Origin: a virus
Taxonomy: Duplodnaviria; Heunggongvirae; Uroviricota; Caudoviricetes
Strand: one strand, 5' to 3'
Virus record (IMG/VR): IMGVR_UViG_2802429246_000010
Span: 1-12,317 of that record
Length of the DNA stretch: 12,317 nt
Shown here: positions 1 to 12,317 of the stretch, one piece after another
Layout: every line of letters starts with the position of its first letter
Numbering within the stretch: position 1 is the first letter of the stretch
The notes under the pieces: generated by a model
Databases searched by the model: none
What the model saw: the letters and a program-made list of their open reading frames with translations, nothing else
Told to the model about the DNA's origin: nothing
Made by a program: the position numbers and the translations under genes

Positions 1-1632
1 ATGGTAACTCGGACAATGCAACAAAAGTATGATCGTGTTTTATCTGGCGAATCCCATCCATTCCCTGGCATATACGAGGCGGTTTCCGAACAACTCCTTT
101 TGCTCATCTTTAAGGCTCGTCAGCTATATCAGAATCCAGAATATCGCCCCTGGTTTGAAGAACAGCACAGAGTTCTCTCTGCATTACGTGCTAATACAGA
201 GCTCTTGAGAATATTTAGAGAACAAAGAAACGCGGAAGAACCAGAGCTTATTATTAAAGAATCTACATTACCCCTACTCACTAATTCTAATCTTACAGAT
301 GCGCTTAATATTATGTGCCATTTATACAATGGTTTTGATGAAGGAAATATCAGTCTGAAAACCTGGGGGGCGATGCAAGAGGTACAGACAACATCAACCT
401 TTATCAGCCCGGGACCGAGAACCTGGAAAACACCTGAACTGGCAAAGTTTGTAGGAGATGATTTATTTAATATTCTGACTGAATGTAAAGCCTGGAGTTC
501 ACCAATTCCAGCAGAAACCCGACAGGGCTATTGCCATCAGGATCTGTCTGTTGCACACTCCTGCACCTCAGAGTTACTGGCACACCTGAATCAATACCAT
601 GAAATTGATGAATCAGCAATACTTGCCAGAGTTATTGGTATGACGGTTAACGGATTCTACAAGAAAAATAATACAGACCTCCCAGAATGGCTATCCCCCT
701 TTAAAGAGGAACATAAAATATTCAGAGATTGTCTGGAGCAAAAGACCGAGGATGTAATCAGACTGAAAGAACAACTGTTGAAAACAGGACGTTCAGAATT
801 CGTGAATAATTTGTGTCGGGTCGCCAACTGGTATGAAATTAAGTCAATATACGATGAATATGTCCGTCTTTATGCCAATGAAATCATTGGTTGGTTCAAC
901 AAAACCATGGAATATTTTAAACCAACAGATTTTATCCGATATACATGGAAATTCGCAACAGTTACTCCAGGTAAAGAGACAGAAACCAAGCATACAACTG
1001 CATGGGAAAAGGATTATTGCCAGATAACTATACAACGTGATGAACTTCTGAGATTGATTCACACGAATACCCTTCAGGATGCAGTAATTTATCTTTGCCA
1101 TTGTCTGCAGAAGAAATACAAGAAATCATCCCAAAATGAGATAGAGTTTCCAGGAATAAAACCTCCGGCATCAGAGAGTGAAATTAATATAACAGATAGT
1201 TTTGAATTTTATTCTCTCCTGGAGCTCAGTAAAGATAATGAGAGACGGCTGGAAACATTTCAAAAATGGTATGAAAAAAATAAAGTTTTGTTAGAAAGTC
1301 ATAAACAAAAACGAACAGAGAAGATTGACGTTGCCGTACGACTTGTAGGGCTGAAAGCCTATGATCTGCATGAAGGGATTCCGGATAGTCCAAAACGAAA
1401 AGTTAAAGATGGCATAAATGAAGACATCAAAGCCGATACCAGTTTACGCCTGCCAAAGACAAATATAAGTGATACGTCGCTAAACCGTTATCGCCGCACT
1501 GTTAAGGAGATTATCAATAACGAAATCGACGCATTCCTGTTGGAACAGAAGAAAAAAAATAAAAGATTTCCCTACAGTGAAGATAGAGATGTGATTCGAC
1601 CTTTATGGGGAAAATGCCTGACCGGGCAGTAG
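1..1632 (+). CDS. hypothetical protein (543 aa), AT-rich accessory/cargo gene; ATG sits at position 1 so the true 5' end may lie beyond the window
   Basis: Uninterrupted 1632-nt ORF with coding-like amino-acid composition; noticeably more AT-rich than the rest of the window; followed by a hairpin terminator; no motif I can recognise by eye. Confidence 0.5.
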   Translation: MVTRTMQQKYDRVLSGESHPFPGIYEAVSEQLLLLIFKARQLYQNPEYRPWFEEQHRVLSALRANTELLRIFREQRNAEEPELIIKESTLPLLTNSNLTDALNIMCHLYNGFDEGNISLKTWGAMQEVQTTSTFISPGPRTWKTPELAKFVGDDLFNILTECKAWSSPIPAETRQGYCHQDLSVAHSCTSELLAHLNQYHEIDESAILARVIGMTVNGFYKKNNTDLPEWLSPFKEEHKIFRDCLEQKTEDVIRLKEQLLKTGRSEFVNNLCRVANWYEIKSIYDEYVRLYANEIIGWFNKTMEYFKPTDFIRYTWKFATVTPGKETETKHTTAWEKDYCQITIQRDELLRLIHTNTLQDAVIYLCHCLQKKYKKSSQNEIEFPGIKPPASESEINITDSFEFYSLLELSKDNERRLETFQKWYEKNKVLLESHKQKRTEKIDVAVRLVGLKAYDLHEGIPDSPKRKVKDGINEDIKADTSLRLPKTNISDTSLNRYRRTVKEIINNEIDAFLLEQKKKNKRFPYSEDRDVIRPLWGKCLTGQ

Positions 1633-1640
1633 ATCACTGA

Positions 1641-1676
1641 GGGGATAACAGCCCGGTTATCCCCTGTTTGTTCTGC
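1641..1676 (+). terminator. rho-independent terminator downstream of the 543-aa ORF
   Basis: 9-bp stem GGGGATAAC (1641-1649) / GTTATCCCC (1656-1664) with 6-nt loop, followed by TGTTTGTTCTGC. Confidence 0.5.
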
Positions 1677-1718
1677 TTCAGGTTGCCAGAGCTCTAGGAA
1701 CACGAGGCAATCGGCAAA

Positions 1719-2315
1719 TTATGCGGCTTTTCCATTAACAGATTCGGCCACAAGAACGACAGTGTGTTTGTTTCGCTCAGGATGTTCACTCCAGATTTCT
1801 GATTCCGGGATGCTTTCCCCGTCATAACTGATCCGTTCGCCATCAAACGGGTAATACCGTGCGGAATCAGTATCTAAAATAAACACCTTCAGATTCGTTG
1901 AACGACGCGCAATATGCTGCCAGAGAGCTTTTCCTCCTTCATATTGCTCGTTATCACTTAATAGTACAACGCCCGCTTTTGTGACTATCGTTTCATAAAC
2001 AAACGTTGCAAGACCAACATCGCGTACAGCTCCATCGACAACAATCCCTTCAATCTGAGCAACATCCTGTTCTTCCCAGAATTTCTGGACAAACACGCCT
2101 TCAAGTCGGGGACGACGCTGAAGCTCCAGAGTGGCAACAACCTTATGGCGAACATCACCATCAATAACAGAAGGTGCAGCTTCGATTACCGCAGCAAACG
2201 GAGTCTTTGGATCCCAGATGATCTGGTAAAGCACGCCCTGAATAGTTACTCCATCCAGTATCGAAAAACGACGGGCTACAGTAGCAGGGGAGTAAGACAT
2301 TGGAATTACAGCCAT
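1719..2315 (-). CDS. hypothetical protein (198 aa from ATG at 2313-2315; the track ORF extends to an upstream GTG at 2345)
   Basis: ATG at 2315 is preceded on the minus strand by AGAGGGGA about 9 nt upstream; coding-like composition; about 100 bp downstream of the integrase on the same strand; no recognisable domain. Confidence 0.5.
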   Translation of the reverse strand: MAVIPMSYSPATVARRFSILDGVTIQGVLYQIIWDPKTPFAAVIEAAPSVIDGDVRHKVVATLELQRRPRLEGVFVQKFWEEQDVAQIEGIVVDGAVRDVGLATFVYETIVTKAGVVLLSDNEQYEGGKALWQHIARRSTNLKVFILDTDSARYYPFDGERISYDGESIPESEIWSEHPERNKHTVVLVAESVNGKAA

Positions 2316-2444
2316 TTTAGAATCCCCTCTGAGTAATACAGGCACGAAAATTTACCTCAATAATTATAGTAAACAATACCAGAGCCAGGCGCATCAACAA
2401 TACTCATCAATTGTACTCAAGTCGTACAACGATCAGGAACGCCC

Positions 2445-3761
2445 TCACCTTCTACCAAACAGATTAACAACATTATTACCTGTCTGCTGTTGGTGGTTAT
2501 TAACCCGGTCCTCCCAGATCTCAAGTGCTCTGCGTTTTTCTGGCAAATAATCGTATCGATCATAATGTTTTGAACTGACATCGTTCAACGCATGATTTTG
2601 AATACGATCGCGGATTTCCTTACTGATTCCAGCTTCTCCCATTAACGTTTTACAGGTCCGACGTAAGTCACGTGCTGTAAAAATTTTAAAGTCAGGATTA
2701 CAAGCCCGGAAATACATGATAGCGCGAGCCAGACTGTCCGTACGAACCGGACGCTTACCATTAGTCGAAAGCGGGAAAATGTAAGGGCTCGATTTTTCTT
2801 TTGTTAACTCCTGCACACAAGATAATTCCTGTAATGCTGATTCAGTCAACGGTATCAAATGTTCTCGCTTATTTTTAGAGACATCCGCAGTCACCAGCAG
2901 CGTTTTTTGCTGAAAATCAACATCACACCACTGACTGGCGATCATTTCGAAGGGACGTTGCCCCCCGGTATAGATACAGAATCGGATCAAATGTTGCATC
3001 AATAATCCAACGTTGGTTGCTTCAGCAAAATGTTCCATTAGAAAACGCAACTCTTCGAGTGTCAGCCAGGTGTCACCGACTTTTTCAGCAGATGACTGTT
3101 TCGGTATCACTGATACCGGATTGGCCTCCAGCCCAAAAGTAATCCCTACACTTGTGTTCATCGGATCGTTATCAGCTTTCAGACCATAGTTAAATGCAGC
3201 CATCAGGTAAGAACGGATCCGGTTAGAGTGAACCACTGCACCGCGCTGAATGATCCCGGCCAGGATATGTTTAATCTGTCCGGAAGTCACATCTTTAGCT
3301 TTAGTCTCACGGGGGATCACTGTATAGCATTCATTTTCAAGGCGTTTCAGAACATCCTGCCATGTTCTCTTATTATCAATTTTCATTTTGTTAACATAAC
3401 CATGAATCAATGCTTCAAATGAGCCCTGTGATTGATGGAGTTGTATCCGCTGCTGTTCTGCAAGCTGTTGTCGCTCCAGTTCTGTCTGGGGATCCTTTCC
3501 TTCAATGAGCCAGGCACCATACTTTTTTGCCAGTTCATTCGCTGTAGCCAGTTTCATCTCAGGCCATATACCCAATTGAATGAATCTTTCTTTTTTCCCT
3601 TTTTCCACGTAATAGCGGAAATAGAAAATTTTGCTGCCAGAAGACTGAACTTTGATGCCAAGTCGTCCAGTGCCACGTTGAGAACTGTTGCTCCAGACAT
3701 AGAACGATGTCTTTTTTGCTTTCAATGCTCGGATAGCTGTTTCAGTTAGATTGACGGCCAT
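2445..3761 (-). CDS. int: site-specific tyrosine recombinase (phage integrase), P4-type with N-terminal arm-binding domain
   Basis: 438 aa; N-terminus (LTETAIRALK...GSKIFYFRYY...ERFIQLGIWPEMKLATA) fits the P4-integrase N-terminal domain pattern; C-terminus has the R...H..R...Y arrangement (ARDLRRT...HALND...HYDRYDY); AAGAGG RBS about 5 nt upstream of ATG at 3761; lies next to a tRNA-derived att core. Confidence 0.9.
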   Translation of the reverse strand: MAVNLTETAIRALKAKKTSFYVWSNSSQRGTGRLGIKVQSSGSKIFYFRYYVEKGKKERFIQLGIWPEMKLATANELAKKYGAWLIEGKDPQTELERQQLAEQQRIQLHQSQGSFEALIHGYVNKMKIDNKRTWQDVLKRLENECYTVIPRETKAKDVTSGQIKHILAGIIQRGAVVHSNRIRSYLMAAFNYGLKADNDPMNTSVGITFGLEANPVSVIPKQSSAEKVGDTWLTLEELRFLMEHFAEATNVGLLMQHLIRFCIYTGGQRPFEMIASQWCDVDFQQKTLLVTADVSKNKREHLIPLTESALQELSCVQELTKEKSSPYIFPLSTNGKRPVRTDSLARAIMYFRACNPDFKIFTARDLRRTCKTLMGEAGISKEIRDRIQNHALNDVSSKHYDRYDYLPEKRRALEIWEDRVNNHQQQTGNNVVNLFGRR

Positions 3762-3808
3762 AGAACCTCTTTTCTAAACCAGTAACAATCAAAATAACTC
3801 GTAAATTT

Positions 3809-3831
3809 GGGTCAGGTAATGGGTCAGGTAA
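3809..3831. promoter_or_regulatory. tandem direct repeat GGGTCAGGTAA x2 (candidate integrase arm-type or accessory-protein site) in the int upstream region
   Basis: Exact 11-bp copies at 3809-3819 and 3821-3831 separated by 1 nt, between the int start codon and the tRNA-derived core; followed by ACAATTA-type AT-rich repeats (3900-3940). Confidence 0.3.
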
Positions 3832-3957
3832 CGATCGTACAATGGAGAAAAAACGGAACCAAGCGGAAACAGAAGCAATTACATAATTACTTGATTATAA
3901 ACAATTAATAAAACAATTACGAACAAACCAAAACAATATAGAATGGACTTGCCTCAT

Positions 3958-4004
3958 GACTCATAATCGCTTGGTCGTTGGTTCAAACCCAACAGGGGCC
4001 ACCA
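3958..4004 (+). other. att core remnant: 47-nt 3' fragment of a tRNA-Ile(CAU)-like gene (anticodon loop through CCA), truncated at the 5' side
   Basis: GACTCATAATCGCTTGGTCGTTGGTTCAAACCCAACAGGGGCCACCA closely matches the 3' part of enterobacterial ileX/ileY-type tRNA as I recall it, with compensatory T-stem changes (GTTGG/CCAAC); the upstream 30 nt cannot form an acceptor or D arm, so this is not a complete tRNA. Confidence 0.65.
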
Positions 4005-4012
4005 TATCTATC

Positions 4013-4050
4013 AAGGGGTTACGTTAACAGCGTGACCCCTTCGTTTTTTC
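4013..4050 (+). terminator. rho-independent terminator immediately after the tRNA-derived core
   Basis: Stem AAGGGGT (4013-4019) / ACCCCTT (4035-4041), 15-nt loop, then CGTTTTTTC. Confidence 0.45.
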
Positions 4051-4330
4051 TAGGATACCTATAGGATACCGTGACAGAGTATAAGCAGGTATAAAAACAA
4101 CAAGTTACGCAACATCATACCTGTCATGAAACTTTAACTATCCGACATGATAGCTGGTCGATGATCACGGATAATCCGTTATGTGGATCCCCATATCGGC
4201 ATCAGACCCACCAGCGTGAAGCGTTTTTCATTTTTCGCGGGTATAAAAAATCGATGGGGCTGGCAGTCCGGAAGACGTCAGGTCACAGGGATTTGACCCG
4301 CCCCTCCCTGTGCATGAGCACAATAAGTAA

Positions 4331-4539
4331 CCGAAGGCGGAATTCCGCCCTCGGTACTCACATATGAGAAACGATATTTCTTCCACCGATACCCTTTATT
4401 TGGGTATCGCGAGTAAGCCCCAAAATCTGGGTGTTACTCTTACTACCCAAACTACGGGTAGTTTCCGTAATTTCATGGTCGAGTTGCAGATCTGCAACTC
4501 ACCCACCAGCGCAACGCTGAAAGCCAGTCAGTAAACTGG
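4331..4539. repeat. cluster of six inverted repeats/hairpins in non-coding DNA, including a perfect 20-bp palindrome at 4481-4500
   Basis: CCGAAGGCGG-AATT-CCGCCCTCGG (4331-4354); CGATACCC/GGGTATCG (4387-4409); ACTACCC/GGGTAGT (4442-4462); GAGTTGCAGATCTGCAACTC (4481-4500); CAGCG-CAA-CGCTG (4507-4519); GCCAGT/ACTGGC (4522-4539). No convincing ORF on either strand. Confidence 0.6.
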
Positions 4540-4560
4540 CTTCGGTCATTGTGCACTACG

Positions 4561-5103
4561 TTACTTGTCTTTATCCGGCTGAAACTTATCAGGCACATTT
4601 CCGGTAGTTTCCATCAGATAATCGGACAGCATTCGCGGGATGTTTTCATCAAGTTTTGTGCATGCGTTACAGGCTCTGACAACTTCTTTTTTCAGGCCAT
4701 CCAGCATGACGGGGGTCATCTGTGGGAAGCTCCTTTGCATAGTAAGCGGCAGGCTGTCCATGATTGATGAAATCTGACTCGCCAGTTTTGAAAGCGCGTA
4801 CATGCAAAACTCTGTATCAATCACGTCACCGCGATCGCGCTCGTTTTTAAGTTCCTGCGCCTCCGCCTGTGCTGTCAGTAATCTGATCCTGACTCGTAAG
4901 AGTTCATCATCATCAATCTCGCCTTTGTCGTTTGTAAGCTGGCTAATTGCATTGTTAACCCTATTGTCTATCACGCTGGCAACATCATAAAACGCCTCAC
5001 GGCCTTTACGTTCAACGGGAGTCACTCCCCACTTGTCGAATGCTGTAGCACTTACCCGGCAGCTTTGCGCCATGGTTTTTTTGTTCATCAGGTGCGATTT
5101 CAT
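4561..5103 (-). CDS. terminase small subunit, lambda Nu1-like (N-terminal winged-HTH cosB-binding type)
   Basis: 180 aa from ATG at 5103 (lambda Nu1 is 181 aa); collinear similarity to lambda Nu1 along the whole length, e.g. LTAQAEAQELKNERD..DTEFCMYALSKLASQISSIMDSLPLTMQRSFP...LDENIPRMLSDYLMETTG against lambda LTRAQADAQELKNARD..ETAFCTFVLSRIAGEIASILDGLPLSVQRRFP...LDELIPGLLSEYIEQSG; a lambda-like cos lies directly upstream. Start is ambiguous (ATG 5103 or ATG 5085). Confidence 0.8.
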   Translation of the reverse strand: MKSHLMNKKTMAQSCRVSATAFDKWGVTPVERKGREAFYDVASVIDNRVNNAISQLTNDKGEIDDDELLRVRIRLLTAQAEAQELKNERDRGDVIDTEFCMYALSKLASQISSIMDSLPLTMQRSFPQMTPVMLDGLKKEVVRACNACTKLDENIPRMLSDYLMETTGNVPDKFQPDKDK

Positions 5104-5109
5104 CAATAT

Positions 5110-5300
5110 CCCAACTTGGTCAAGGTTTCAGGTTGGTGTGTTGGTGTTATCTTTCCCTTTTTATTCATGGAGATAGAGCAAACAACAAAACCACCACCAC
5201 CACCCTGAAAAAGCTCATAAATAGCGAAAAACCGCGAGGTCGCCGCCCCGTAGCCTACCGGATCGCCGGAAAGGACCCGCCAGCCAGAACGGGCCCTAAT
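5110..5300 (-). other. lambda-type cohesive-end site (cos); cosN 12-nt overhang sequence at 5237-5248, diverged cosB-side region 5110-5214
   Basis: Minus strand reads GGGCGGCGACCTCGCGGTTTTTCGCTATTTATGA (plus 5215-5248), matching the lambda left end GGGCGGCGACCTCGCGGGTTTTCGCTATTTATGA at 33 of 34 positions including the full cohesive-end 12-mer; sequence then diverges from lambda before the Nu1-like start. Confidence 0.8.
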
Positions 5301-5304
5301 TTCA

Positions 5305-5688
5305 TCAACCAATCAACTTATAGCGACCATCCCGTGCATTGCGGCGTACACGCTCAATCTTGAGGCATAGCGCCGCATCTGGCTTTTTTGGGACAGGTAC
5401 GCGGCAATATTCAGAAGCTCGAGGAATATTGTTTATCCAGTCGATCACTTCGCTTAAATACCAGGCCTTACGCCCTTCCGTAACCTGTACGCGTTCGGGG
5501 AACTCTCCGCGAGCCTCAAGGTTTAGCAATGTGCGACGGCTAAGGGTAGTAAGTTCCATCACCTGATTCATATCAACAAGGCGTTCACTTAAACGCATTT
5601 TGTCAGCAATAGCCTTTAATTCCTCTACTGCTGGATCCGGATACATCATTTCGGCAATTGGCTTAAGGTCATTGTAATGATTCTGCAT
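5305..5688 (-). CDS. AlpA/Vis-family HTH DNA-binding protein (127 aa, with an N-terminal extension of about 30 aa)
   Basis: Core RLVDMNQVMELTTLSRRTLLNLEARGEFPERVQVTEGRKAWYLSEVIDWINN fits the AlpA pattern; AGGGGGA RBS 5-6 nt upstream of ATG at 5688; stop lies about 57 bp from cosN. Confidence 0.7.
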   Translation of the reverse strand: MQNHYNDLKPIAEMMYPDPAVEELKAIADKMRLSERLVDMNQVMELTTLSRRTLLNLEARGEFPERVQVTEGRKAWYLSEVIDWINNIPRASEYCRVPVPKKPDAALCLKIERVRRNARDGRYKLIG

Positions 5689-5699
5689 TGTATCCCCCT

Positions 5700-6041
5700 T
5701 TACACACGAGCCAGCGGCTGAACAGAAATACCTGAGCCAACAAACGCGGCAACCTTTGCCGACAGTTCTTTTACAGACTCAGGCCAGTTCAGAGCATCAA
5801 CATTTAAAACACCTGTCTTATAAACCTGTGCCTGTGTTTTTTTCGCTGTGTCGATTTGTACAGCGGAAACATAAACCGCTTTGCCTGCGCTCGTTCCATC
5901 CCATACCACTAGCGCACCAGTTGCATCTTCCTGCATCAGTGGCGTAAACGCAGGTATTACCCCTTTATTGGCTGAAAATATCCCCAGCGTAGTAACCAGT
6001 GCTTCAGTGCCAGACATGAGTTCAGTGTAATGAGTAGCCAT
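5700..6041 (-). CDS. head decoration protein, lambda gpD-like
   Basis: 113 aa; TPLMQEDATGALVVWDGTSAGKAVYVSAVQIDTAKKTQAQVYKTGVLNVDALNWPE...AFVGSGISV aligns with lambda gpD [55 protein letters not shown]...AFAGTAISIV; AAGGGGGAG RBS overlaps the stop of the upstream capsid gene. Confidence 0.8.
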   Translation of the reverse strand: MATHYTELMSGTEALVTTLGIFSANKGVIPAFTPLMQEDATGALVVWDGTSAGKAVYVSAVQIDTAKKTQAQVYKTGVLNVDALNWPESVKELSAKVAAFVGSGISVQPLARV

Positions 6042-6050
6042 TGCTCCCCC

Positions 6051-7097
6051 TTAGCCAATGCGAACGGTAACAAAACGATTGATGCGGGCCGGTATTGGCT
6101 GTGGTGCTGAATGTGTCTGCACATATTCAATAGCCGGATCACCAGGCACAATATAGTTTTTCGGTGCAAGTTCGGCTTTAGTCAGCCCCATCCGAATTAG
6201 CTCCGGATCCTGAATACCGCCATAAGCGACAATCCCCTGAAGAGCCGTATTGCCAAGCACCATCAAATCAGGATCAAGGAAATATTTTTCAGTTCCGTCC
6301 TCGTCGGTATAACGCCCGCTGTAAACAACAATCGCAACATCGCCCATATACCCTTTAAAACTCACCGAATCACCAAGGTCTTTAAGGGCCGTTTCCAGTT
6401 CGGAATTAGAACCACGACGGGTATCCAGAGCCTCTTTTATCGCTCTGAATGAACGGTATTTCTTCCATACATTACCGCCCATAATGATGATATTAGTGAC
6501 GCCCTCACTAAATTCTGCGTAGCTCTCAATATCATCATTTGGATCAAAAGTTTCTTTATCCTTACCTGACCACTCAGCACCGCCAGACTGCGTGATAATA
6601 TTTTGTGGTTTTATATTCCAGTCCAGTTCATAACGTTCAATACCATCGCCCTCAATGATATTTTTCCCCGTTGTGATTGCCTGAACAGCAAGCCATTCAA
6701 TACGTGCACGTATAGCTTTAGCCTGATTTACAATCGCCTGTTTAACTTTAATATTACGCGCCCCAAAAGCATTGTATTGTTCAGGTGATACACCAGCAGG
6801 GCGCACAGCTAACTTATTTGGATCAATGCTGCTTTTCGGTTTCATATAGCCAGGGCGAATTGTTTTTGATTCGTATCCCTCATCTCGTGAAACTTTACTG
6901 CCCACCATAGGAGAGCAAAACGCCGCGATCGGGATATTTGGATCGTCGATCGTATCAAGAATAATGTCTCTCGATTCAAACATTACCGAGCGAGTGAAAA
7001 ACAAACTGGTAAACAACGCATTTAATTTTTTTTGCACATCTTCAGCATTAGCCACCTGCACAAGCTGTGTAGGCGAATATAAATCAACCATACTCAT
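6051..7097 (-). CDS. major capsid protein, lambda gpE-like (start at ATG 7097 or 7091; track ORF extends to 7178)
   Basis: Strong collinear similarity to lambda gpE, e.g. ITQSGGAEWSGKDKETFDPNDDIESYA...YRSFRAIKEALDTRRGSNSELETALKDLGDSVSFKGYMGDVAIVVYSG...MVLGNT...GDPA against lambda ITQSGGTEWSKRDKSTYDPTDDIEAYA...FRSFKAVKEKLDTRRGSNSELETAVKDLGKAVSYKGMYGDVAIVVYSG...MVLGNT...GDPA; N-terminus MSMVDLYSPTQL parallels lambda MSMYTTAQLL; AAAGAGG RBS just upstream. Confidence 0.85.
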   Translation of the reverse strand: MSMVDLYSPTQLVQVANAEDVQKKLNALFTSLFFTRSVMFESRDIILDTIDDPNIPIAAFCSPMVGSKVSRDEGYESKTIRPGYMKPKSSIDPNKLAVRPAGVSPEQYNAFGARNIKVKQAIVNQAKAIRARIEWLAVQAITTGKNIIEGDGIERYELDWNIKPQNIITQSGGAEWSGKDKETFDPNDDIESYAEFSEGVTNIIIMGGNVWKKYRSFRAIKEALDTRRGSNSELETALKDLGDSVSFKGYMGDVAIVVYSGRYTDEDGTEKYFLDPDLMVLGNTALQGIVAYGGIQDPELIRMGLTKAELAPKNYIVPGDPAIEYVQTHSAPQPIPARINRFVTVRIG

Positions 7098-7262
7098 CCT
7101 CTTTACATTCATTACAAATAATTGTGAATATATTCTATTACCGATGTCTGCTATGCGAATACATGCAACCAAGTGCAATGTTGTATAAAATATGCCGTGA
7201 CAACTTCAGTGCTGATAATTCGTGTTAATGTATTTACTTCCTTTGGTCGGGATTTATGTAGC

Positions 7263-7302
7263 ATGCCGGAAAATCTATTTTTTTCCGGCATCTTTTTGTT
7301 TG
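7263..7302 (+). terminator. strong hairpin plus T-tract (terminator-like, plus-strand orientation) upstream of the capsid gene
   Basis: 11-bp stem ATGCCGGAAAA (7263-7273) / TTTTCCGGCAT (7281-7291), 7-nt loop, then CTTTTTGTTTG. Orientation is antisense to the surrounding minus-strand genes, so its function is uncertain. Confidence 0.35.
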
Positions 7303-7375
7303 CAGAATTTAAAACGGTATATTATCGCCGTACGGATCATCATTCCCCGACTGTTGTTTTGCCCTGTTCAGTGCG

Positions 7376-7732
7376 TCAGTGGCCTGCCCCTGCTGGCCTT
7401 TTTTTGCCGCCCGGTCGCGCCGTTCGCGCACTGATTACGCTGTCTGCGATAACCTGCCAGCCCTGCCGCGTTTCGCCGTTCTGGCCTGTCCACTGGCTTA
7501 CCTGCATGTTACCCGCCACGCTCACCAGTTCGCCTTTGTGGTGTTTTGCCAGTGCGTCGGCCTGTCTGCCAAACGCCAGGACGGATAACCACATCGTCGC
7601 CGTTCCGTCATCTGCCTGGCTGCACGGAAGGGGGACCGCCATACTAGCCATCGCCATTTGTGTACCCTTGCTGGTGGTCTTTAACTGCGGGTCAGCCACC
7701 AGCCGTCCGTAAGCCGCTATCTGTGCTGTCAT
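7376..7732 (-). CDS. single-stranded-DNA-binding-like OB-fold protein (118 aa) with a basic C-terminal tail
   Basis: Pattern YGRLVADPQL...TMWLSVLAFGRQADALAKHHKGELVSVAGNMQVSQWTGQNGETRQGWQVIADSV parallels E. coli SSB (VGNLGQDPEV...[52 protein letters not shown]); GGAGAG RBS; ATGA start/stop overlap with the upstream gene. Confidence 0.5.
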   Translation of the reverse strand: MTAQIAAYGRLVADPQLKTTSKGTQMAMASMAVPLPCSQADDGTATMWLSVLAFGRQADALAKHHKGELVSVAGNMQVSQWTGQNGETRQGWQVIADSVISARTARPGGKKRPAGAGH

Positions 7733-7971
7733 GCTGTCTGCTCTCCGGTTTTAACGTTGATGGTTGTTACCTGTTCCGCTTCGGCAATCTCCCGTTCTGT
7801 CATCGTGGCAAAGTTTGCAGCTGCCGTTGTCATGAATGCGCTAATCAGTTCGGGATGTGCTTTCGCATATCCTTCCCCGGCGTTGCGGTCGATGATTTTT
7901 ATCGCCACTCTCAGCCAGTGCTCTGTAAGGTCAATAGCGCGGTAGTGTGGTTGTTTGCGGTTTGCCTTCAT
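7729..7971 (-). CDS. hypothetical protein (80 aa)
   Basis: ORF whose stop overlaps the start of the SSB-like gene (ATGA); coding-like composition; weak RBS; first gene after the iteron origin. Confidence 0.5.
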   Translation of the reverse strand: MKANRKQPHYRAIDLTEHWLRVAIKIIDRNAGEGYAKAHPELISAFMTTAAANFATMTEREIAEAEQVTTINVKTGEQTA

Positions 7972-8011
7972 AGTTCAGATCTCAATTTTTCGTATATATA
8001 TACAAAACAGT

Positions 8012-8334
8012 GCGGGTTATGCGGGTTAGCGGGTTAGCGGGTTATCTTCGCTTGCTAAGTATTTTTTATTCATTAATATCAATACATTACAAAATTAACT
8101 GTTTACTGTTTAGCCGTGGCGTAACCCGCAAAATGCTCAAAATAACCCGCAAACGGGGTTTTTTCTGCGGGTTACGCGTGGCTGTTTGCTGTCACTTCCT
8201 GTTATTCATCTGCGGGTTATAATCGCACTTTTGTGGGTTATAACTGCCGTTTTGCGGGTTACGTGCGGGTTATTGATTTCCTTTTTATTCATGCAGTTAA
8301 TGCACTTATACACAGAGTAACCCACATAACCCGC
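8012..8334. repeat. iteron-type replication origin: about 13 copies of GCGGGTTA (both orientations) flanking an AT-rich unwinding stretch
   Basis: Four tandem copies at 8012-8044; reverse copies TAACCCGC at 8122-8129, 8143-8150, 8327-8334; forward copies at 8167-8174, 8212-8219, 8254-8261, 8265-8272; variants GTGGGTTA (8233-8240) and TAACCCAC (8318-8325); AT-rich segment 8050-8110; located immediately downstream of the replication gene. Confidence 0.75.
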
Positions 8335-8357
8335 AACTTTTCACCTCACACAGGGGG

Positions 8358-10481
8358 TTAATCTTCTGCCTCAGGCTGGAACATCAGCACGTAAAAAACA
8401 TGCTGCTTCCCCCCAATTTTGCCGAGAGCCTTTTTCTTGTAACGGCGATCGTTACCCGCTTCCAGCATTCCGGCAGCACTCAACGCGCGGGCAAAGTGGG
8501 ACGGGTTAAATCCCTGTGCGATCTCCCCCTCAAACACATGAGGAAACGTGTAAAAACGGAACTCATCATCTTCATTTCTGATACTCCCCTTTCTGTATCC
8601 GGCAAGGTCTTTAATCGGTAAATCACGTTCATCACTGTTTGGGTAAGGAAGGTATCGACTGAACCCGAACGACGACAAAAACGCCTCAGCCTGTTCAACC
8701 ATCTGTTTAAATTCCCTGTTACCCGTGCCGAACTCCTTCACCCAGGCATTAAAGTTATGCTGTATTGCGTCCCGGCATTCCTGCGCGGCCCAGCCAGTTA
8801 CATGACCGGAAAGCACAAGCGCGGCCTCCAGTATGGCGAAACGCTCACCCACGCGGTGGACCTGCTCGCCGTAGCTCTCCGGTATCAGGTTGCGCCACCG
8901 TTCGCGGCATTCCCTTACCGTATCCTTTGCCTCCTGCTGGTGGCCTGCCAGCCATTTAACCCACTCACGACCCGCTGCCCCGTGATTTTCTGTCCAGGCA
9001 TCCTTTAACGCGTCTGCGTGCGCCTTTCCGGTGCTGTATTCGTGAAAGTGCGTGGCTTTTTCCATCGGAACGTTAAGCAGGCGGACAAGCTGCCCCGCTT
9101 TGACTTTTATCCCCTCCGTTTTGAGGAATGTCTCAACGTCCATTTCTCCGGTGCTGATTGCCACCGTGCGCCAGTGTTTTATCTCCCGGTTGCCGCCGTC
9201 CTTCGCCCCCTGTAATTTCCCGGAACCGTTAAACAACGTATAGGCTGACGTGGACACCTCCCGCGCGTTTCCGGCCTGGCCTATTTCATCCAGGGGTAAC
9301 AGCCCGTCGTTGTGCGCCTCTGCCTCGTTAGCGATACCTAACGCTGTGCCGTACCAGGTCAGCCGTTGTGCGTCCGGCTCTCCCCATAAACTTGATGCGA
9401 TGTTCTGCGTGGTGGTTTTCCCTGCCGATGACTGTTCGAAAAGATGTACCCCGAAGCCGTCAGCACCAACAAGGCCAATCAAAGGTGCTGCCAGTGACGT
9501 GGCAACACCCAGCATCATGGACGGATTGCCACCAGCCAGCCGCGCCACGCAGTCGCGCCAGCCCTCCGACGTACCCGCAACCGAATAGCCATTAACAGTG
9601 GCACTTTTTCCGGTAAACAGGATCGGTTTTTCAGAATCACCAATGATTGAGCCGTCCGGCATGATATACGCGCCAAAATGCCAGCCCGTTGTTGTGCTTA
9701 GCTGCCATTCCTCATGGCTTCCGCTTAACTGCATCCAGTCAGCCAGGATAGCCCTGTATTTGCCGTTTGTTGTCACGTTCAGCCCGTGATCTTTAAGCAA
9801 CCGCCAGCCGTCACGGTCGCCAATGCCACCACACGGGATCGCCATTGTGATGACTTCATGGTTTGCTAATTTTTTCCAGCGCATCACGCGGTAATGCTCT
9901 TTACCGATCGTCCCTGTTCCCAGTAGTTCAAGCGGAGAACATAACCACGTCTCAGGCCGGATAATTTCGCCTGACTGCTTATCCACTTTGGGCGTTACCC
10001 AGAAAACACCATCGACGCGACTTTCAACGCGGGGCTTTAATTCATCATCCTGATAGCATGGCTCTTTTTTCTTTACAGGCAGTTCAACTACCTTTTTCTT
10101 TTCCGCCTGCTCTGCCCGTTCACGTTCCAGATATTCACGCCAGTTCTCCCGTTTCTGGCTGTGCATTCCTTCAGGGTAATAATCAGCATCCCTGACACCT
10201 GCCGCTGCCAGTTTCTGCCCGATGGTATTAACAAGCCCCGGACGCAATAACCCCGCCTGATAGAGACGCACGCGATAGCGTCCGTCCGGTACGATTTGCA
10301 GGTTGTCCAGTTCGGCAAGTTGTTGCTCTCCAAGCCAGACAGGAGGCACGTTATCGCCAGCCAGTCGCCCGTCCTGTTCCTGCCACTGCTTCGCATGTGC
10401 CCACGCATCACTACCCGCAAAAATGATGACTTCCGTCATTTTGTCACGTGGCTGGTGTTTTAAATTTGGCGCTTTTTTCAT
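8358..10481 (-). CDS. replication initiator, primase/helicase-like P-loop NTPase (707 aa from ATG at 10481)
   Basis: Large ORF with Walker A-like SSAGKTT and Walker B-like LLPLDEIG motifs; GGAGAGAG RBS upstream of ATG at 10481; start overlaps the stop of the upstream gene (ATGA); cognate iterons immediately downstream. Family assignment is by context and motifs, not by confirmed homology. Confidence 0.8.
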   Translation of the reverse strand: MKKAPNLKHQPRDKMTEVIIFAGSDAWAHAKQWQEQDGRLAGDNVPPVWLGEQQLAELDNLQIVPDGRYRVRLYQAGLLRPGLVNTIGQKLAAAGVRDADYYPEGMHSQKRENWREYLERERAEQAEKKKVVELPVKKKEPCYQDDELKPRVESRVDGVFWVTPKVDKQSGEIIRPETWLCSPLELLGTGTIGKEHYRVMRWKKLANHEVITMAIPCGGIGDRDGWRLLKDHGLNVTTNGKYRAILADWMQLSGSHEEWQLSTTTGWHFGAYIMPDGSIIGDSEKPILFTGKSATVNGYSVAGTSEGWRDCVARLAGGNPSMMLGVATSLAAPLIGLVGADGFGVHLFEQSSAGKTTTQNIASSLWGEPDAQRLTWYGTALGIANEAEAHNDGLLPLDEIGQAGNAREVSTSAYTLFNGSGKLQGAKDGGNREIKHWRTVAISTGEMDVETFLKTEGIKVKAGQLVRLLNVPMEKATHFHEYSTGKAHADALKDAWTENHGAAGREWVKWLAGHQQEAKDTVRECRERWRNLIPESYGEQVHRVGERFAILEAALVLSGHVTGWAAQECRDAIQHNFNAWVKEFGTGNREFKQMVEQAEAFLSSFGFSRYLPYPNSDERDLPIKDLAGYRKGSIRNEDDEFRFYTFPHVFEGEIAQGFNPSHFARALSAAGMLEAGNDRRYKKKALGKIGGKQHVFYVLMFQPEAED

Positions 10482-10777
10482 TTCTGCTCTCTCCACGCGG
10501 CAATCATGTTTTTCAGTTCCTGTAGTTTTTTATCCACATTCACACGTGACACATGGTTATTTCTGGAAAGCGGGATTTCCCGCCTGAATCTGCTAATAAA
10601 GATCTCCACGTTCAGCGAACTATGAAATGAATAGCCATCACGAATAAAATACACACGGTCAAACATTATCGATTTTACTGTTACTCTGTTGCCGTTCTTA
10701 TCCCGATAAATAGCGCCGGGGATAATTTTGGGATGTGCATAACCGCTGGCAGTCAAGCCAGATAAATACGTTCTCAT
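10478..10777 (-). CDS. hypothetical protein (99 aa), translationally coupled to the replication gene
   Basis: ATG at 10777 with GGGGA upstream; stop overlaps the primase start codon. Confidence 0.55.
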   Translation of the reverse strand: MRTYLSGLTASGYAHPKIIPGAIYRDKNGNRVTVKSIMFDRVYFIRDGYSFHSSLNVEIFISRFRREIPLSRNNHVSRVNVDKKLQELKNMIAAWREQK

Positions 10778-10783
10778 GATTAT

Positions 10784-11104
10784 TTATCCCCGATTTGAAT
10801 CAGTATTCGCTTTCTTTATGGCATTTAATGCATCTGTGGCATTTTCAATGGTGCACCGTAACGAAATATCAAAATGTCCAAGCATTGCCAGTAACAAACC
10901 GATATTACCCATATCAATGCGCATGGCCTTTTCGTCATAGTCCTCATTTTCTGACGCATGCCACATCAGGCTACCAATTGACGCAACGGCCATTGATATA
11001 TTGTCAGTCGCCCCATCCGCAGCGGAATAAACCTTTTTAGCAATATCATGCTCACAGTTAAAATGCGGATTAATCAGGTACTGGTAATTTGACATATCAG
11101 GCAT
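10784..11104 (-). CDS. hypothetical protein (106 aa)
   Basis: ATG at 11104 with AGGGGG RBS 7 nt upstream; coding-like composition; start overlaps the end of the upstream small gene. Confidence 0.6.
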   Translation of the reverse strand: MPDMSNYQYLINPHFNCEHDIAKKVYSAADGATDNISMAVASIGSLMWHASENEDYDEKAMRIDMGNIGLLLAMLGHFDISLRCTIENATDALNAIKKANTDSNRG

Positions 11105-11300
11105 GGCACACCCCCTGACGAATACGGGCGGCGAATACCATCACGCAGCCAGCCGGGGATTGCTGGCGTGCTTCCTGTTCGCTGGTGGCCACGATGGTAA
11201 TCACACGCGGTTTTGCGGCGCTCAGGGCGATAAAACGCCAGGCGAATTTATTCAGGTTGTGCGAATCCCGCCCTTGCGGGTGTATGGTATGATTTCTCAT
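11097..11300 (-). CDS. small protein (67 aa), possibly Icd-like (P4-type host cell division inhibitor family); first gene of the leftward operon
   Basis: ATG at 11300 with GAGG 6 nt upstream; MRNHTIHPQGRDSHNLNKFAWRFIALSAAKPRVITIVATSEQEARQQSPAGCVMVFAARIRQGVCHA; the FAWRF...EAR...FAAR pattern recalls Icd-like proteins (from memory, unverified). It is the only coding-like stretch of the otherwise implausible 334-aa track ORF. Confidence 0.45.
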   Translation of the reverse strand: MRNHTIHPQGRDSHNLNKFAWRFIALSAAKPRVITIVATSEQEARQQSPAGCVMVFAARIRQGVCHA

Positions 11301-11337
11301 AGCTACCTCGATACTCTCGTTATCGTTGGTGGTTAGA

Positions 11338-11383
11338 AGCCCTGCGAGTGGTAACGACACTTGCGGGGCTTTGTTTTTTGTTG
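11338..11383 (+). terminator. hairpin plus T-tract (terminator-like, plus-strand orientation) in the divergent regulatory region
   Basis: 11-bp stem AGCCCTGCGAG (11338-11348) / CTTGCGGGGCT (11360-11370) with two G-U pairs, 11-nt loop, followed by TTGTTTTTTGTTG. Confidence 0.3.
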
Positions 11384-11396
11384 CACTTACTGTTAA

Positions 11397-11440
11397 TGTA
11401 CGTACGTAATATTGATGATAATAGGAGTTACGTACGTACA
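11397..11440. promoter_or_regulatory. twin operator: two copies of the self-complementary 10-mer TACGTACGTA (13-bp inverted repeats TGTACGTACGTAA / TTACGTACGTACA) 30 bp apart
   Basis: Copies at 11399-11408 and 11429-11438; the second lies between an AGGAG (11423-11427) and the ATG of the RHH gene; a TAATAT -10-like hexamer sits between the two copies. Confidence 0.5.
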
Positions 11441-11631
11441 TGTCAACATTAAAGCGGGATAAATCACCACGCGGCGAGGGATGGTCGCCGACATTCCAGA
11501 TACGAATTAGCAAAGAACTACGCCAGCAAGTAAACGAGGCAGCAACCGCCGATGGCCTAACCCTCGGCAATTGGTTTAAAGAATTAGCTCGTGCCGAACT
11601 AAAGCGACGTGGCATTGAACCTAAAGGCTGA
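11440..11631 (+). CDS. ribbon-helix-helix (CopG/Arc-like) DNA-binding regulator (63 aa)
   Basis: FQIRISKELRQQVNEAATADGLTLGNWFKELARAEL fits a beta-strand/helix/helix RHH pattern; the gene begins directly after the palindromic operators and is divergent from the replication operon. Confidence 0.55.
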   Translation: MSTLKRDKSPRGEGWSPTFQIRISKELRQQVNEAATADGLTLGNWFKELARAELKRRGIEPKG

Positions 11632-11634
11632 TGT

Positions 11635-11760
11635 ATGACTGAAAAGCAGACCGATAACAAACTTTCTCTACCAGAGAATAAACCAGCAGGCTTCTTACCA
11701 AGAAAAATCCTTGATGAGATCAAACGCCGCCAGCGGCGCAAGGCCAAAGAGCTGGAGTAA
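11635..11760 (+). CDS. small basic ORF (41 aa), not in the supplied track
   Basis: ATG 4 nt after the RHH stop with AAGG upstream; MTEKQTDNKLSLPENKPAGFLPRKILDEIKRRQRRKAKELE; plausible but too short to judge by composition. Confidence 0.3.
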   Translation: MTEKQTDNKLSLPENKPAGFLPRKILDEIKRRQRRKAKELE

Positions 11761-11817
11761 CCATCACCAGCGCCGTGGTGCGGTGAACTGTGGCGCACAG
11801 GGTTACAGGTATCTACG

Positions 11818-11997
11818 ATGACTGACAAATCATTAAAGAAATTATCCTCATCCAAGAAAAAACAACGCAAAAATGCGGTAAACGAACATGAACCGGAGAG
11901 ATTCGCACCATGTGCGTTTATCCTTGAGAAGTACCTTAAAGAGTATTCTAGGAAAATACGCTCATTGCAGGCATGGCAGCGAATCGAGCCAGACTGA
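11818..11997 (+). CDS. small basic ORF (59 aa), not in the supplied track
   Basis: ATG at 11818; MTDKSLKKLSSSKKKQRKNAVNEHEPERFAPCAFILEKYLKEYSRKIRSLQAWQRIEPD; N-terminus resembles the 41-aa ORF (MT-D/E-K); weak RBS. Confidence 0.25.
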   Translation: MTDKSLKKLSSSKKKQRKNAVNEHEPERFAPCAFILEKYLKEYSRKIRSLQAWQRIEPD

Positions 11998-12107
11998 TAG
12001 CATTGCCCACCAGCCAACAACCTGGTATTCTGGATATGCTCAAGTTTAGTGTTATGCCACTGGCGGCCCTCTGCGGTCGCCTTTGTTTTATGTGCCATCA
12101 CTCCCCC

Positions 12108-12317
12108 TTACACCGTCTGCGTTCTGCGAGTGGATGCAAGATAAGCATCGAGATCAGTGCGCATATACAGCACTTTGCGCCCCAGCTTATGGAAAGGGAT
12201 TTTTACCTTGCCAGTACAGGCCCAGTTCGCCAGCGTTTGATTGTTAACGCCAAGGTAGGCAGCAGCTTCAGCACGTGTAAGGCGGTCAGTTGATAAATCA
12301 GATTTCTTTAAATTCAT
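12108..12317 (-). CDS. excisionase/AlpA-family HTH DNA-binding protein (69 aa; start codon at the window edge, so it may extend upstream)
   Basis: LTRAEAAAYLGVNNQTLANW...GKVKIPFHKLGRKVLYMRTDLDAYLA matches the excisionase-type HTH pattern; position and orientation suggest an int-alpA-type pair with an integrase beyond the window edge. Confidence 0.7.
   Translation of the reverse strand: MNLKKSDLSTDRLTRAEAAAYLGVNNQTLANWACTGKVKIPFHKLGRKVLYMRTDLDAYLASTRRTQTV

Follow-up and report, generated by a model that had tools for sequence, protein, structure and literature searches.

A probable Gram-negative phage-inducible chromosomal island with a Nu1-type small terminase, a lambda-type capsid gene pair and putative cos sites of two terminase systems

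Background

Among the Gram-negative phage-inducible chromosomal islands (PICIs), EcCICFT073 of Escherichia coli encodes a capsid protein (c1499) and a head decoration protein (c1500), carries a lambda-like cos and is transferred by phages lambda and phi80 (PMC6092414); its c1503 gene encodes RppA, a protein of 144 aa (PMC6739421). In CFT073, the genes follow one another in the order Icd-like gene, DUF4222 gene, primase gene, small gene, gene for a single-stranded DNA-binding protein (SSB), capsid gene, decoration gene, small gene, gap, 144-aa gene, small gene and phoQ. The present study concerns a stretch of 12,317 nt (IMG/VR virus record IMGVR_UViG_2802429246_000010, positions 1 to 12,317; hereafter the window) and, in particular, a packaging module that comprises a gpE-like capsid gene, a gpD-like decoration gene, a second AlpA-like gene, a lambda-type cos and a gene for a small terminase (TerS) of the lambda Nu1 family. 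Positions 3959 to 12317 of the window can be identified with good confidence as most of a classical Gram-negative PICI of ~10.8 kb, which belongs to the EcCICFT073 family and is located at an ileX-type tRNA site.

Capsid genes were found in 21 of 29 reference Gram-negative PICIs by Mageeney et al. (PMC10111431), and the PICI model of SatelliteFinder has five core components, i.e., an integrase, an AlpA/MerR/Stl regulator, a primase-replicase, a capsid protein and a small terminase (PMC10085698). Among the pathogenicity islands of Staphylococcus aureus (SaPIs), SaPI1 and SaPIbov1 resemble the island described here in encoding a small terminase that redirects the large terminase (TerL) of the helper, and SaPIbov5 in encoding a capsid homologue, Ccm, as well as in carrying a helper-type cos. 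However, the SaPI proteins are unrelated and come from Gram-positive hosts, and SaPI TerS serves pac (headful) packaging rather than a lambda-type cos. The size-determining role of Ccm is, moreover, that of SaPIbov5, whereas the E. coli PICI capsid genes are known here from sequence. The capsid-forming PICIs (cf-PICIs), such as EcCIEDL933, have integrase, AlpA and replication modules in common with the island and likewise encode a capsid protein of their own, but additionally encode an HK97-type TerL, HNH, portal, protease and head-tail connector proteins, none of which is encoded by the island in the window.

Results and Discussion

Island boundaries and relationship to described satellites

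The main genes of the window are all located on the minus strand. Families were assigned by scanning the 16 main open reading frames (ORFs) against Pfam and PHROG and by BLASTP against lambda proteins translated from NC_001416. A search with the whole window identified synteny across 97% of its length in E. coli A36 (locus L001), in which two 46-nt repeats of an ileX-type tRNA 3' fragment, 10,804 bp apart, flank the element. In the window, the TerS-side end of the island is an attachment (att) junction at 3959-4004 (plus strand), where 46 nt duplicate the 3' part of an ileX-like tRNA-Ile2 (anticodon CAT). Its counterparts in A36 are found at L001 15629-15674 and L001 26433-26478, the latter beside the island integrase gene and nfeF. 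No intact tRNA was detected in the window by ARAGORN, and only 3' fragments are present. Near this junction, two TAGGATACC repeats (4051-4070, plus strand) represent candidate arm-type sites of the integrase; a 45-nt block with these repeats at L001 15719-15763 has a second copy, 78% identical, at L001 26303-26347 near the island integrase gene, which suggests such a function. According to the syntenic A36 island, a tyrosine integrase gene and a 717-bp gene lie just past the right end of the window.

The element thus delimited shows an integrase with an att duplication, an AlpA gene with genes running in one direction, a primase-replicase gene followed by an iteron origin, a capsid homologue, a TerS gene with a packaging site and a size of 10.8 kb, with Gram-negative PICIs ranging from ~10 to 15 kb. 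Annotation of the complete A36 island (L001 15629-26497) revealed no TerL, portal, protease, scaffold, tail or lysis genes between the att repeats, and no TerL, portal, protease or tail genes were found within the window. With TerL, portal, scaffold and tail genes missing from the island, a lambdoid helper must therefore supply these functions. The initial annotation had considered the module to be part of a satellite rather than a rearranged prophage, and these boundaries and gene contents bear it out. Three lambda head and packaging homologues beside a lambda-like cos might otherwise have pointed to a decayed or rearranged lambdoid prophage. Such a remnant is, however, a very improbable explanation for a unit of 10.8 kb that is delimited by att repeats, possesses an integrase, AlpA, primase and origin of its own, recurs at several att sites, has genes under purifying selection and encodes proteins with at most 47.5% identity to any phage; the boundaries and recurrence of the island refute it. 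Two other satellite classes were also considered and rejected. Assignment to the cf-PICIs is contradicted by the absence of TerL, portal, protease and head-tail connector genes from both the window and the full island (compare the cf-PICI in locus L011), and neither Pfam nor PHROG assigned any of the 16 main ORFs to Psu, Sid or Delta, the capsid-hijack families expected of a P4-like satellite.

The island shares with EcCICFT073 the order of the backbone from AlpA to a winged helix-turn-helix (wHTH) packaging protein, including an iteron origin after the primase gene, a lambda-type cos, a size of ~10-11 kb and lambdoid helpers. Protein identities to EcCICFT073 range from 36 to 89% (capsid 54%, decoration 54%, SSB 79%, gene upstream of SSB 89%), and the N-terminal 230 aa of the primase are 50% identical. 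In contrast to EcCICFT073, the island encodes a 181-aa Nu1-type TerS and has a different cosB where EcCICFT073 encodes RppA (144 aa), an AlpA-like gene takes the place of c1502, a DUF927 helicase domain replaces the C-terminus of the primase, its second cos belongs to the SfI/phiP27 rather than the lambda type, and the att site is ileX rather than a site beside phoQ. An O157:H7 PICI located beside phoQ (strain TX 265-1, locus L006) shares the TerS family (84% amino acid identity), the cosB and a lambda-type cos after the capsid and decoration genes, but differs in having EcCICFT073-type capsid, decoration and c1502 genes, a RepA-type helicase and a PerC gene, and in lacking the second AlpA-like gene and the SfI-type cos. 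The initial annotation had not recognised its combination of head, packaging and replication genes as a described family; since EcCICFT073 has the same order, both capsid and terS are components of the SatelliteFinder PICI model and capsid genes occur in most of the reference PICIs, the combination is the standard architecture of classical Gram-negative PICIs. The region is the packaging end of a satellite of a kind already described in E. coli and not a new family. Recognition of this canonical architecture, one often encountered in E. coli and also present in O157:H7, corrects the earlier reading.

A Nu1-type small terminase and its lambda-type cos

The order gpE-like, gpD-like, AlpA-like, cos and Nu1-like on one strand, as first proposed, was confirmed by minus-strand coordinates running from 7097 down to 4561, and all three lambda homologies were strong in both Pfam and PHROG. 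The last gene of this series (4561-5106, minus strand; start at 5103 in RefSeq gene models) is located at the position of rppA in EcCICFT073 and encodes a full-length Nu1-family TerS of 181 aa. This protein matched Pfam Phage_Nu1 (PF07471) with 81 bits (cut-off 30; E 9.8e-23) and PHROG 57 (terminase small subunit) over residues 1-174 (E 6e-52). By BLASTP, it is 36.9% identical to lambda Nu1, with residues 7-167 aligned to residues 3-180 of 181 and the C-terminal part included. Its closest phage relative is N15 gp1 (47.5%), with no higher identity among 50,697 phage records. No partner large terminase (gpA) gene neighbours the TerS gene and the island has no TerL, which identifies it as a satellite TerS. 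A survey of 5426 complete E. coli genomes detected the gene at ≥80% identity in 766, O157:H7 among them. A characterised Nu1-type TerS of a PICI was not found in the literature.

The gap of ~200 nt between the AlpA-like gene and the TerS gene contains the lambda-type cos (5215-5278, minus strand), which consists of cosQ, cosN and an adjacent I2-like segment. The cosQ sequence GGGTCCTTTCCGG (5278-5266), the 12-nt cohesive-end sequence GGGCGGCGACCT (5248-5237) and the sequence TTTTCGCTATTTATGA (5230-5215) match the lambda end junction and EcCICFT073 cos1 nearly base for base, and ~78 nt of this cos match lambdoid phages with 90-91% identity. Between cosN and the TerS gene, a cosB-like segment (5126-5210, minus strand) consists of an inverted repeat, with arms TTTCAGGGTGGTG (5210-5198) and CACCAACCTGAAA (5138-5126), around an A-rich spacer and represents a candidate TerS binding site. 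The sequence after cosN with TTTCAGGGTGGTG and CACCAACCTGAAA is common to three TerS-type islands, and the repeat accompanies the TerS cassette in islands of O157 and of the O103 type. The O157 island keeps the TerS-type cosB despite its CFT073-type capsid, decoration and c1502 genes, and the Rpp-type EcCICFT073 has a different cosB. The type of cosB thus goes with TerS or Rpp rather than with the type of capsid, and this fits a specificity protein and its site forming one cassette. A Nu1-type TerS with a co-varying cosB at the Rpp locus also provides a natural comparison for the evolution of Rpp from TerS and for the bypass of helper TerS by cos-type satellites.

In the TerS-type islands, a run of GGTGGTGGTGGTGG was also observed downstream of cosN (5198-5210 in the window); EcCICFT073 has a complementary-looking CACCACCACCAC at a similar distance from cosN (CFT073 locus L003, ~7600-7625). 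The two may be inverted recognition elements or a coincidence.

Based on the work on EcCICFT073 and on the biology of lambda terminase, a lambdoid helper would induce the island through AlpA, and the island would excise and replicate from its own origin as concatemers. The island TerS would then bind the island-specific cosB (inverted repeat 5210-5126), and its Nu1-like C-terminus (LDENIPRMLSDYL compared to LDELIPGLLSEYI in lambda) would recruit a helper TerL of the gpA type, which would cut the lambda-like cosN. The DNA would enter heads built with helper portal, scaffold and protease and receive helper tails, while terminase would be diverted from the helper; packaging would thus proceed at the expense of the helper, as it does with SaPI TerS and pac phages. 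Under this mechanism, a single protein, TerS, would perform the task for which Rpp has to pair with helper TerS in a heterodimer. Four copies of the island amount to 43.2 kb, i.e., 89% of lambda, and would fit a lambda-sized head, in agreement with the packaging of concatemers reported for EcCICFT073.

Heterodimers that retarget packaging have been shown for RppA-C, and the TerS of the island could act in the same mode, by pairing with helper TerS to form a complex that no longer recognises the helper cos and is redirected to that of the island; in that case, helper TerS would be essential. The exact rppA position downstream of a PICI cos, the alignment of the N-terminal part of TerS with the DNA-binding domain of Nu1, and the wHTH fold shared by Rpp and Nu1, with Rpp thought to be derived from TerS (PMC6739421), are all compatible with such a mode. 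Nevertheless, it appears unlikely. BLASTP showed no similarity between TerS and RppA, the sole alignment of a window protein to RppA being non-significant and from another protein, and a phmmer search of PDB with TerS at E ≤ 1 yielded no relevant match, thus missing the RppC structures 6HLK and 6HN7 (PMC6739421). Moreover, Rpp proteins are 139-154 aa long and lack the TerL-binding C-terminal region of TerS (PMC9026076), whereas the 181-aa TerS retains the C-terminal region of Nu1, which in lambda binds gpA (PMC6739421, PMC9026076). That the protein itself is an Rpp was rejected on the lack of similarity to RppA and RppC, on its length and on its alignment up to residue 180 of the 181 of Nu1.

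A putative second cos of the SfI/phiP27 type and a hairpin-rich tail

A second cos (4226-4308, minus strand) is located ~250 nt downstream of the Nu1-like TerS gene and was recognised by its similarity to the HNH-TerS intergenic region of phages. Phages and prophages of the SfI, SfII, SfV, SfIV and ST64B types match it with 95-98% identity in the segment that separates their HNH endonuclease gene from their P27-family TerS gene. The matches extend to the ends of the linear records of SfI, SfV and SfIV, and the segment overlaps the annotated cos-site of phiP27. The cohesive end of SfI, TGCCCGCCCC, has been determined experimentally (PMC3636060). In the window, the 10-nt sequence at the cohesive-end position (4265-4256) is TGCCAGCCCC, which has one substitution compared to TGCCCGCCCC; a sister island located between clpS and cspD (locus L002) carries the exact SfI 10-mer.

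Judged by these alignments, the island carries predicted cos sites of two unrelated terminase systems, and the second one probably allows HK97-type HNH-cos phages to package the island as well. EcCICFT073 also has two cos sites, both of the lambda type (PMC6092414), and no description of an SfI/P27-type cos in a PICI was found in the literature. Among 5426 complete E. coli genomes, 114 have the 3' half of the TerS gene, the hairpins described below and the second cos as one uninterrupted stretch. If functional, an additional cos from an unrelated type of phage would widen the range of helpers that are able to spread such islands together with their cargo.

The ~550 nt from the TerS gene to the att fragment are non-coding and very rich in hairpins, with the tail directly downstream of TerS found at 4309-4560 (minus strand). 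RNA folding of 4270-4560 gave a z-score of -10.7 and ~9 consecutive stem-loops, and no convincing ORF was identified in this segment. Rfam searches of the whole window at the gathering threshold and of 3900-4620 at E ≤ 1 returned nothing credible. Other PICIs (L010) and a cf-PICI (L011) carry pieces of the tail at their 3' ends. The tail is a mosaic of short modules that are scattered singly in many genomes, one of them being the phage cos, which makes it a poor subject for a covariation test as one structured RNA. Stacked terminators, palindromes that act at the DNA level and structured RNA are possible explanations of these hairpins.

Capsid, decoration and second AlpA-like genes

The capsid gene (6051-7097, minus strand) encodes a gpE-like major capsid protein of ~346-348 aa. 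It matched Pfam Phage_cap_E with 141.7 bits (E 3.6e-41) and PHROG 29 with E 4e-91, and BLASTP showed 42% identity to lambda E over the full length. In PDB, the lambda capsid 7vi9 was matched with E 1.5e-76, and the best match was 3bqw, which is c1499 of EcCICFT073 (54.4% identity). The ORF of 6051-7178 (minus strand) initially taken as the gene does encode a gpE-like protein, but its end at 7178 is that of the longest ORF and corresponds to an upstream TTG; the true start is probably an ATG at 7097 or 7091 (MSMVDLY..., compared to MSMYTT... in lambda), in agreement with a RefSeq model of 1041 bp. The adjacent gene (5700-6041, minus strand) encodes a head decoration protein of 113 aa similar to gpD and SHP, with matches to Pfam HDPD (57 bits, E 2.3e-15) and PHROG 49 (E 1.2e-26), 39.7% identity to lambda D, 53.6% identity to c1500, and SHP of phage 21 and lambda gpD as the best PDB matches. 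Between the decoration gene and the cos, at the position of c1502, a third gene (5305-5688, minus strand) encodes a wHTH protein of 127 aa that belongs to the AlpA family (Phage_AlpA E 1.4e-8; PHROG 2790 E 1.8e-48) and has no similarity to c1502. Excisionase, late activator and packaging accessory protein are all conceivable roles for this second AlpA-like protein.

Comparison with sister copies yielded ratios of nonsynonymous to synonymous substitution (dN/dS) of 0.04-0.11 for the capsid gene, 0.07-0.15 for the decoration gene and 0.02-0.14 for the AlpA-like gene, with a range of 0.02-0.21 across these and the TerS gene. The four module genes are all intact and under purifying selection, and no phage capsid among the 50,697 records exceeded 42% identity. 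Intact genes, low dN/dS and the absence of a close phage capsid indicate that these are maintained satellite-specific genes and neither recent captures nor decaying remnants. The capsid and decoration proteins form a matched pair that belongs to a satellite-specific lineage, and selection clearly acts on such genes of PICIs. A demonstrated function for these genes in E. coli PICIs was not found in the literature beyond the papers cited here.

Our best guess is that the pair enters, or forms, heads that are scaffolded by the helper. In the model of the initial annotation, in which the island supplies its own shell, these proteins would assemble on the portal and scaffold of the helper into heads that are specific to the satellite and possibly smaller, in a manner similar to SaPIbov5 Ccm or to a minimal cf-PICI. 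Purifying selection on two intact, co-inherited genes, a lineage distinct from all sequenced phages searched, and the small heads made by PmCI172, a PICI with a capsid homologue (PMC6092414), are consistent with such heads. This model is doubtful, though possible: EcCICFT073 is packaged in phage-sized heads and deletion of c1499 or c1500 did not relieve its interference (PMC6092414), its capsid gene is reportedly dispensable for transfer (PMC6092414, PMC10111431), and the island does not encode a portal, protease or scaffold. Alternatively, the genes could be kept as back-up copies, as many islands of this lineage insert into helper head genes and a spare copy could compensate until excision. 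This idea has been put forward previously (PMC10111431), and sister islands with the same module do interrupt head genes of lambdoid prophages, in one case the capsid gene and in another the portal gene. Compensation of this kind is distinctly unlikely here, given that a protein only 42% identical to lambda-type E is a doubtful stand-in for it and that the copy in the window, as well as others, is located at tRNA or chromosomal sites away from prophages.

In a more novel reading, which is less likely than not, the TerS-type PICIs would form a branch of the Rpp-type islands that differs in mechanism and may be ancestral, in which TerS with a private cosB would recruit gpA-type TerL without helper TerS, two terminase systems (lambda-type and HK97/P27-type HNH-cos) would mobilise the island, and the capsid and decoration pair would add satellite-specific shell subunits. 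Several points weigh against the main interpretation of the island given above. The TerS could pair with helper TerS in the manner of Rpp; the dispensability of the EcCICFT073 homologues makes a structural role of the capsid and decoration pair no more than possible; induction, excision, packaging and transfer are extrapolated from other systems; and the copy in the window may be partly impaired by a frameshift in its SSB gene and by the substitution in the cohesive end of the second cos.

Sister islands

The same core was found with other integrases at other sites, i.e., between clpS and cspD, beside phoQ in O157:H7 and inside lambdoid prophages. An O157:H7 island of 11.2 kb is included in the supplement of Fillol-Salom 2018 (PMC6092414); it is very likely the phoQ island found here in TX 265-1, although the strains differ. 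Two sisters are embedded in helpers, one inside a portal gene (L007; E. coli O121, NZ_CP119441) and one inside a major capsid gene (L008; NZ_CM142696). Both carry the module of capsid, decoration and AlpA-like genes, cos and TerS gene, with capsid genes 99% identical to that of the window. They correspond to the helper-embedded PICIs of the 11capE type (Mageeney et al. 2023), whereas the copy in the window is located at a tRNA fragment instead. The capsid gene of the L007 island is split by IS1, and the L008 island carries cargo genes for a TIR-domain protein and an abortive-infection protein.

Replication, regulatory and neighbouring genes

Upstream of the capsid gene, an SSB gene (7376-7732, minus strand; Pfam match) is frameshifted by an extra A in an A-run. 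The predicted protein ends in ...GGKKRPAGAGH without the acidic C-terminal tail (...DDPYGDNIPF) of intact copies, and the SSB gene of A36 is likewise frameshifted according to RefSeq; the island copy in the window may thus replicate less well. The next gene (7729-7971, minus strand) encodes a conserved PICI protein of 80 aa (phrog_1231) that is 89% identical to the product of the EcCICFT073 gene upstream of SSB. The non-coding segment 8011-8337 contains the replication origin, in which TGCGGGTTA iterons in both orientations (9 exact copies as well as degenerate ones, identified by a repeat search) surround AT-rich DNA, an architecture described for E. coli PICI origins (PMC6092414). The adjoining gene (8358-10496, minus strand) encodes a primase/helicase of 712 aa (DUF927; phrog_1139, DNA primase), so that the iteron origin next to a primase/helicase gene noted earlier is borne out. 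Early small genes occupy 10478-11300 (minus strand) and comprise a DUF4222 gene (10777-10478), a gene for a 106-aa protein (11104-10784) and an Icd-like ORF (~11300-11097), the last of which was placed by shifting the coordinates that RefSeq gives for the syntenic island.

The leading gene of this leftward operon (12108-12317, minus strand) encodes an AlpA/HTH_17 regulator, with the integrase gene lying beyond the end of the window. Together with the Phage_AlpA protein at 5305-5688, this family match agrees with the AlpA-family regulators of the initial annotation. A divergent gene (11440-11631, plus strand) encodes a protein of 63 aa and occupies, by synteny, the position of the YlcI/YnfO family in other PICIs; the sole family match behind the ribbon-helix-helix switch of the initial annotation is a weak HicB-like one (E 0.004). 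A 334-aa ORF at 11097-12101 (minus strand) extends across this regulatory region, overlaps annotated small genes on both strands, has no family match and is most likely spurious.

The remainder of the window (1-3958) represents a different integrative island that is found in tandem, shares the same tRNA-fragment junction and has its own integrase. Its genes encode a P4-type integrase (2445-3761, minus strand), a 208-aa protein (1719-2345, minus strand; phrog_7522) and a 543-aa protein (1-1632, plus strand) with no Pfam family. In A36, this tandem island runs on into genes of the YagK/YfjJ and inovirus-Gp2 families and into a haemagglutinin locus of the two-partner-secretion type.

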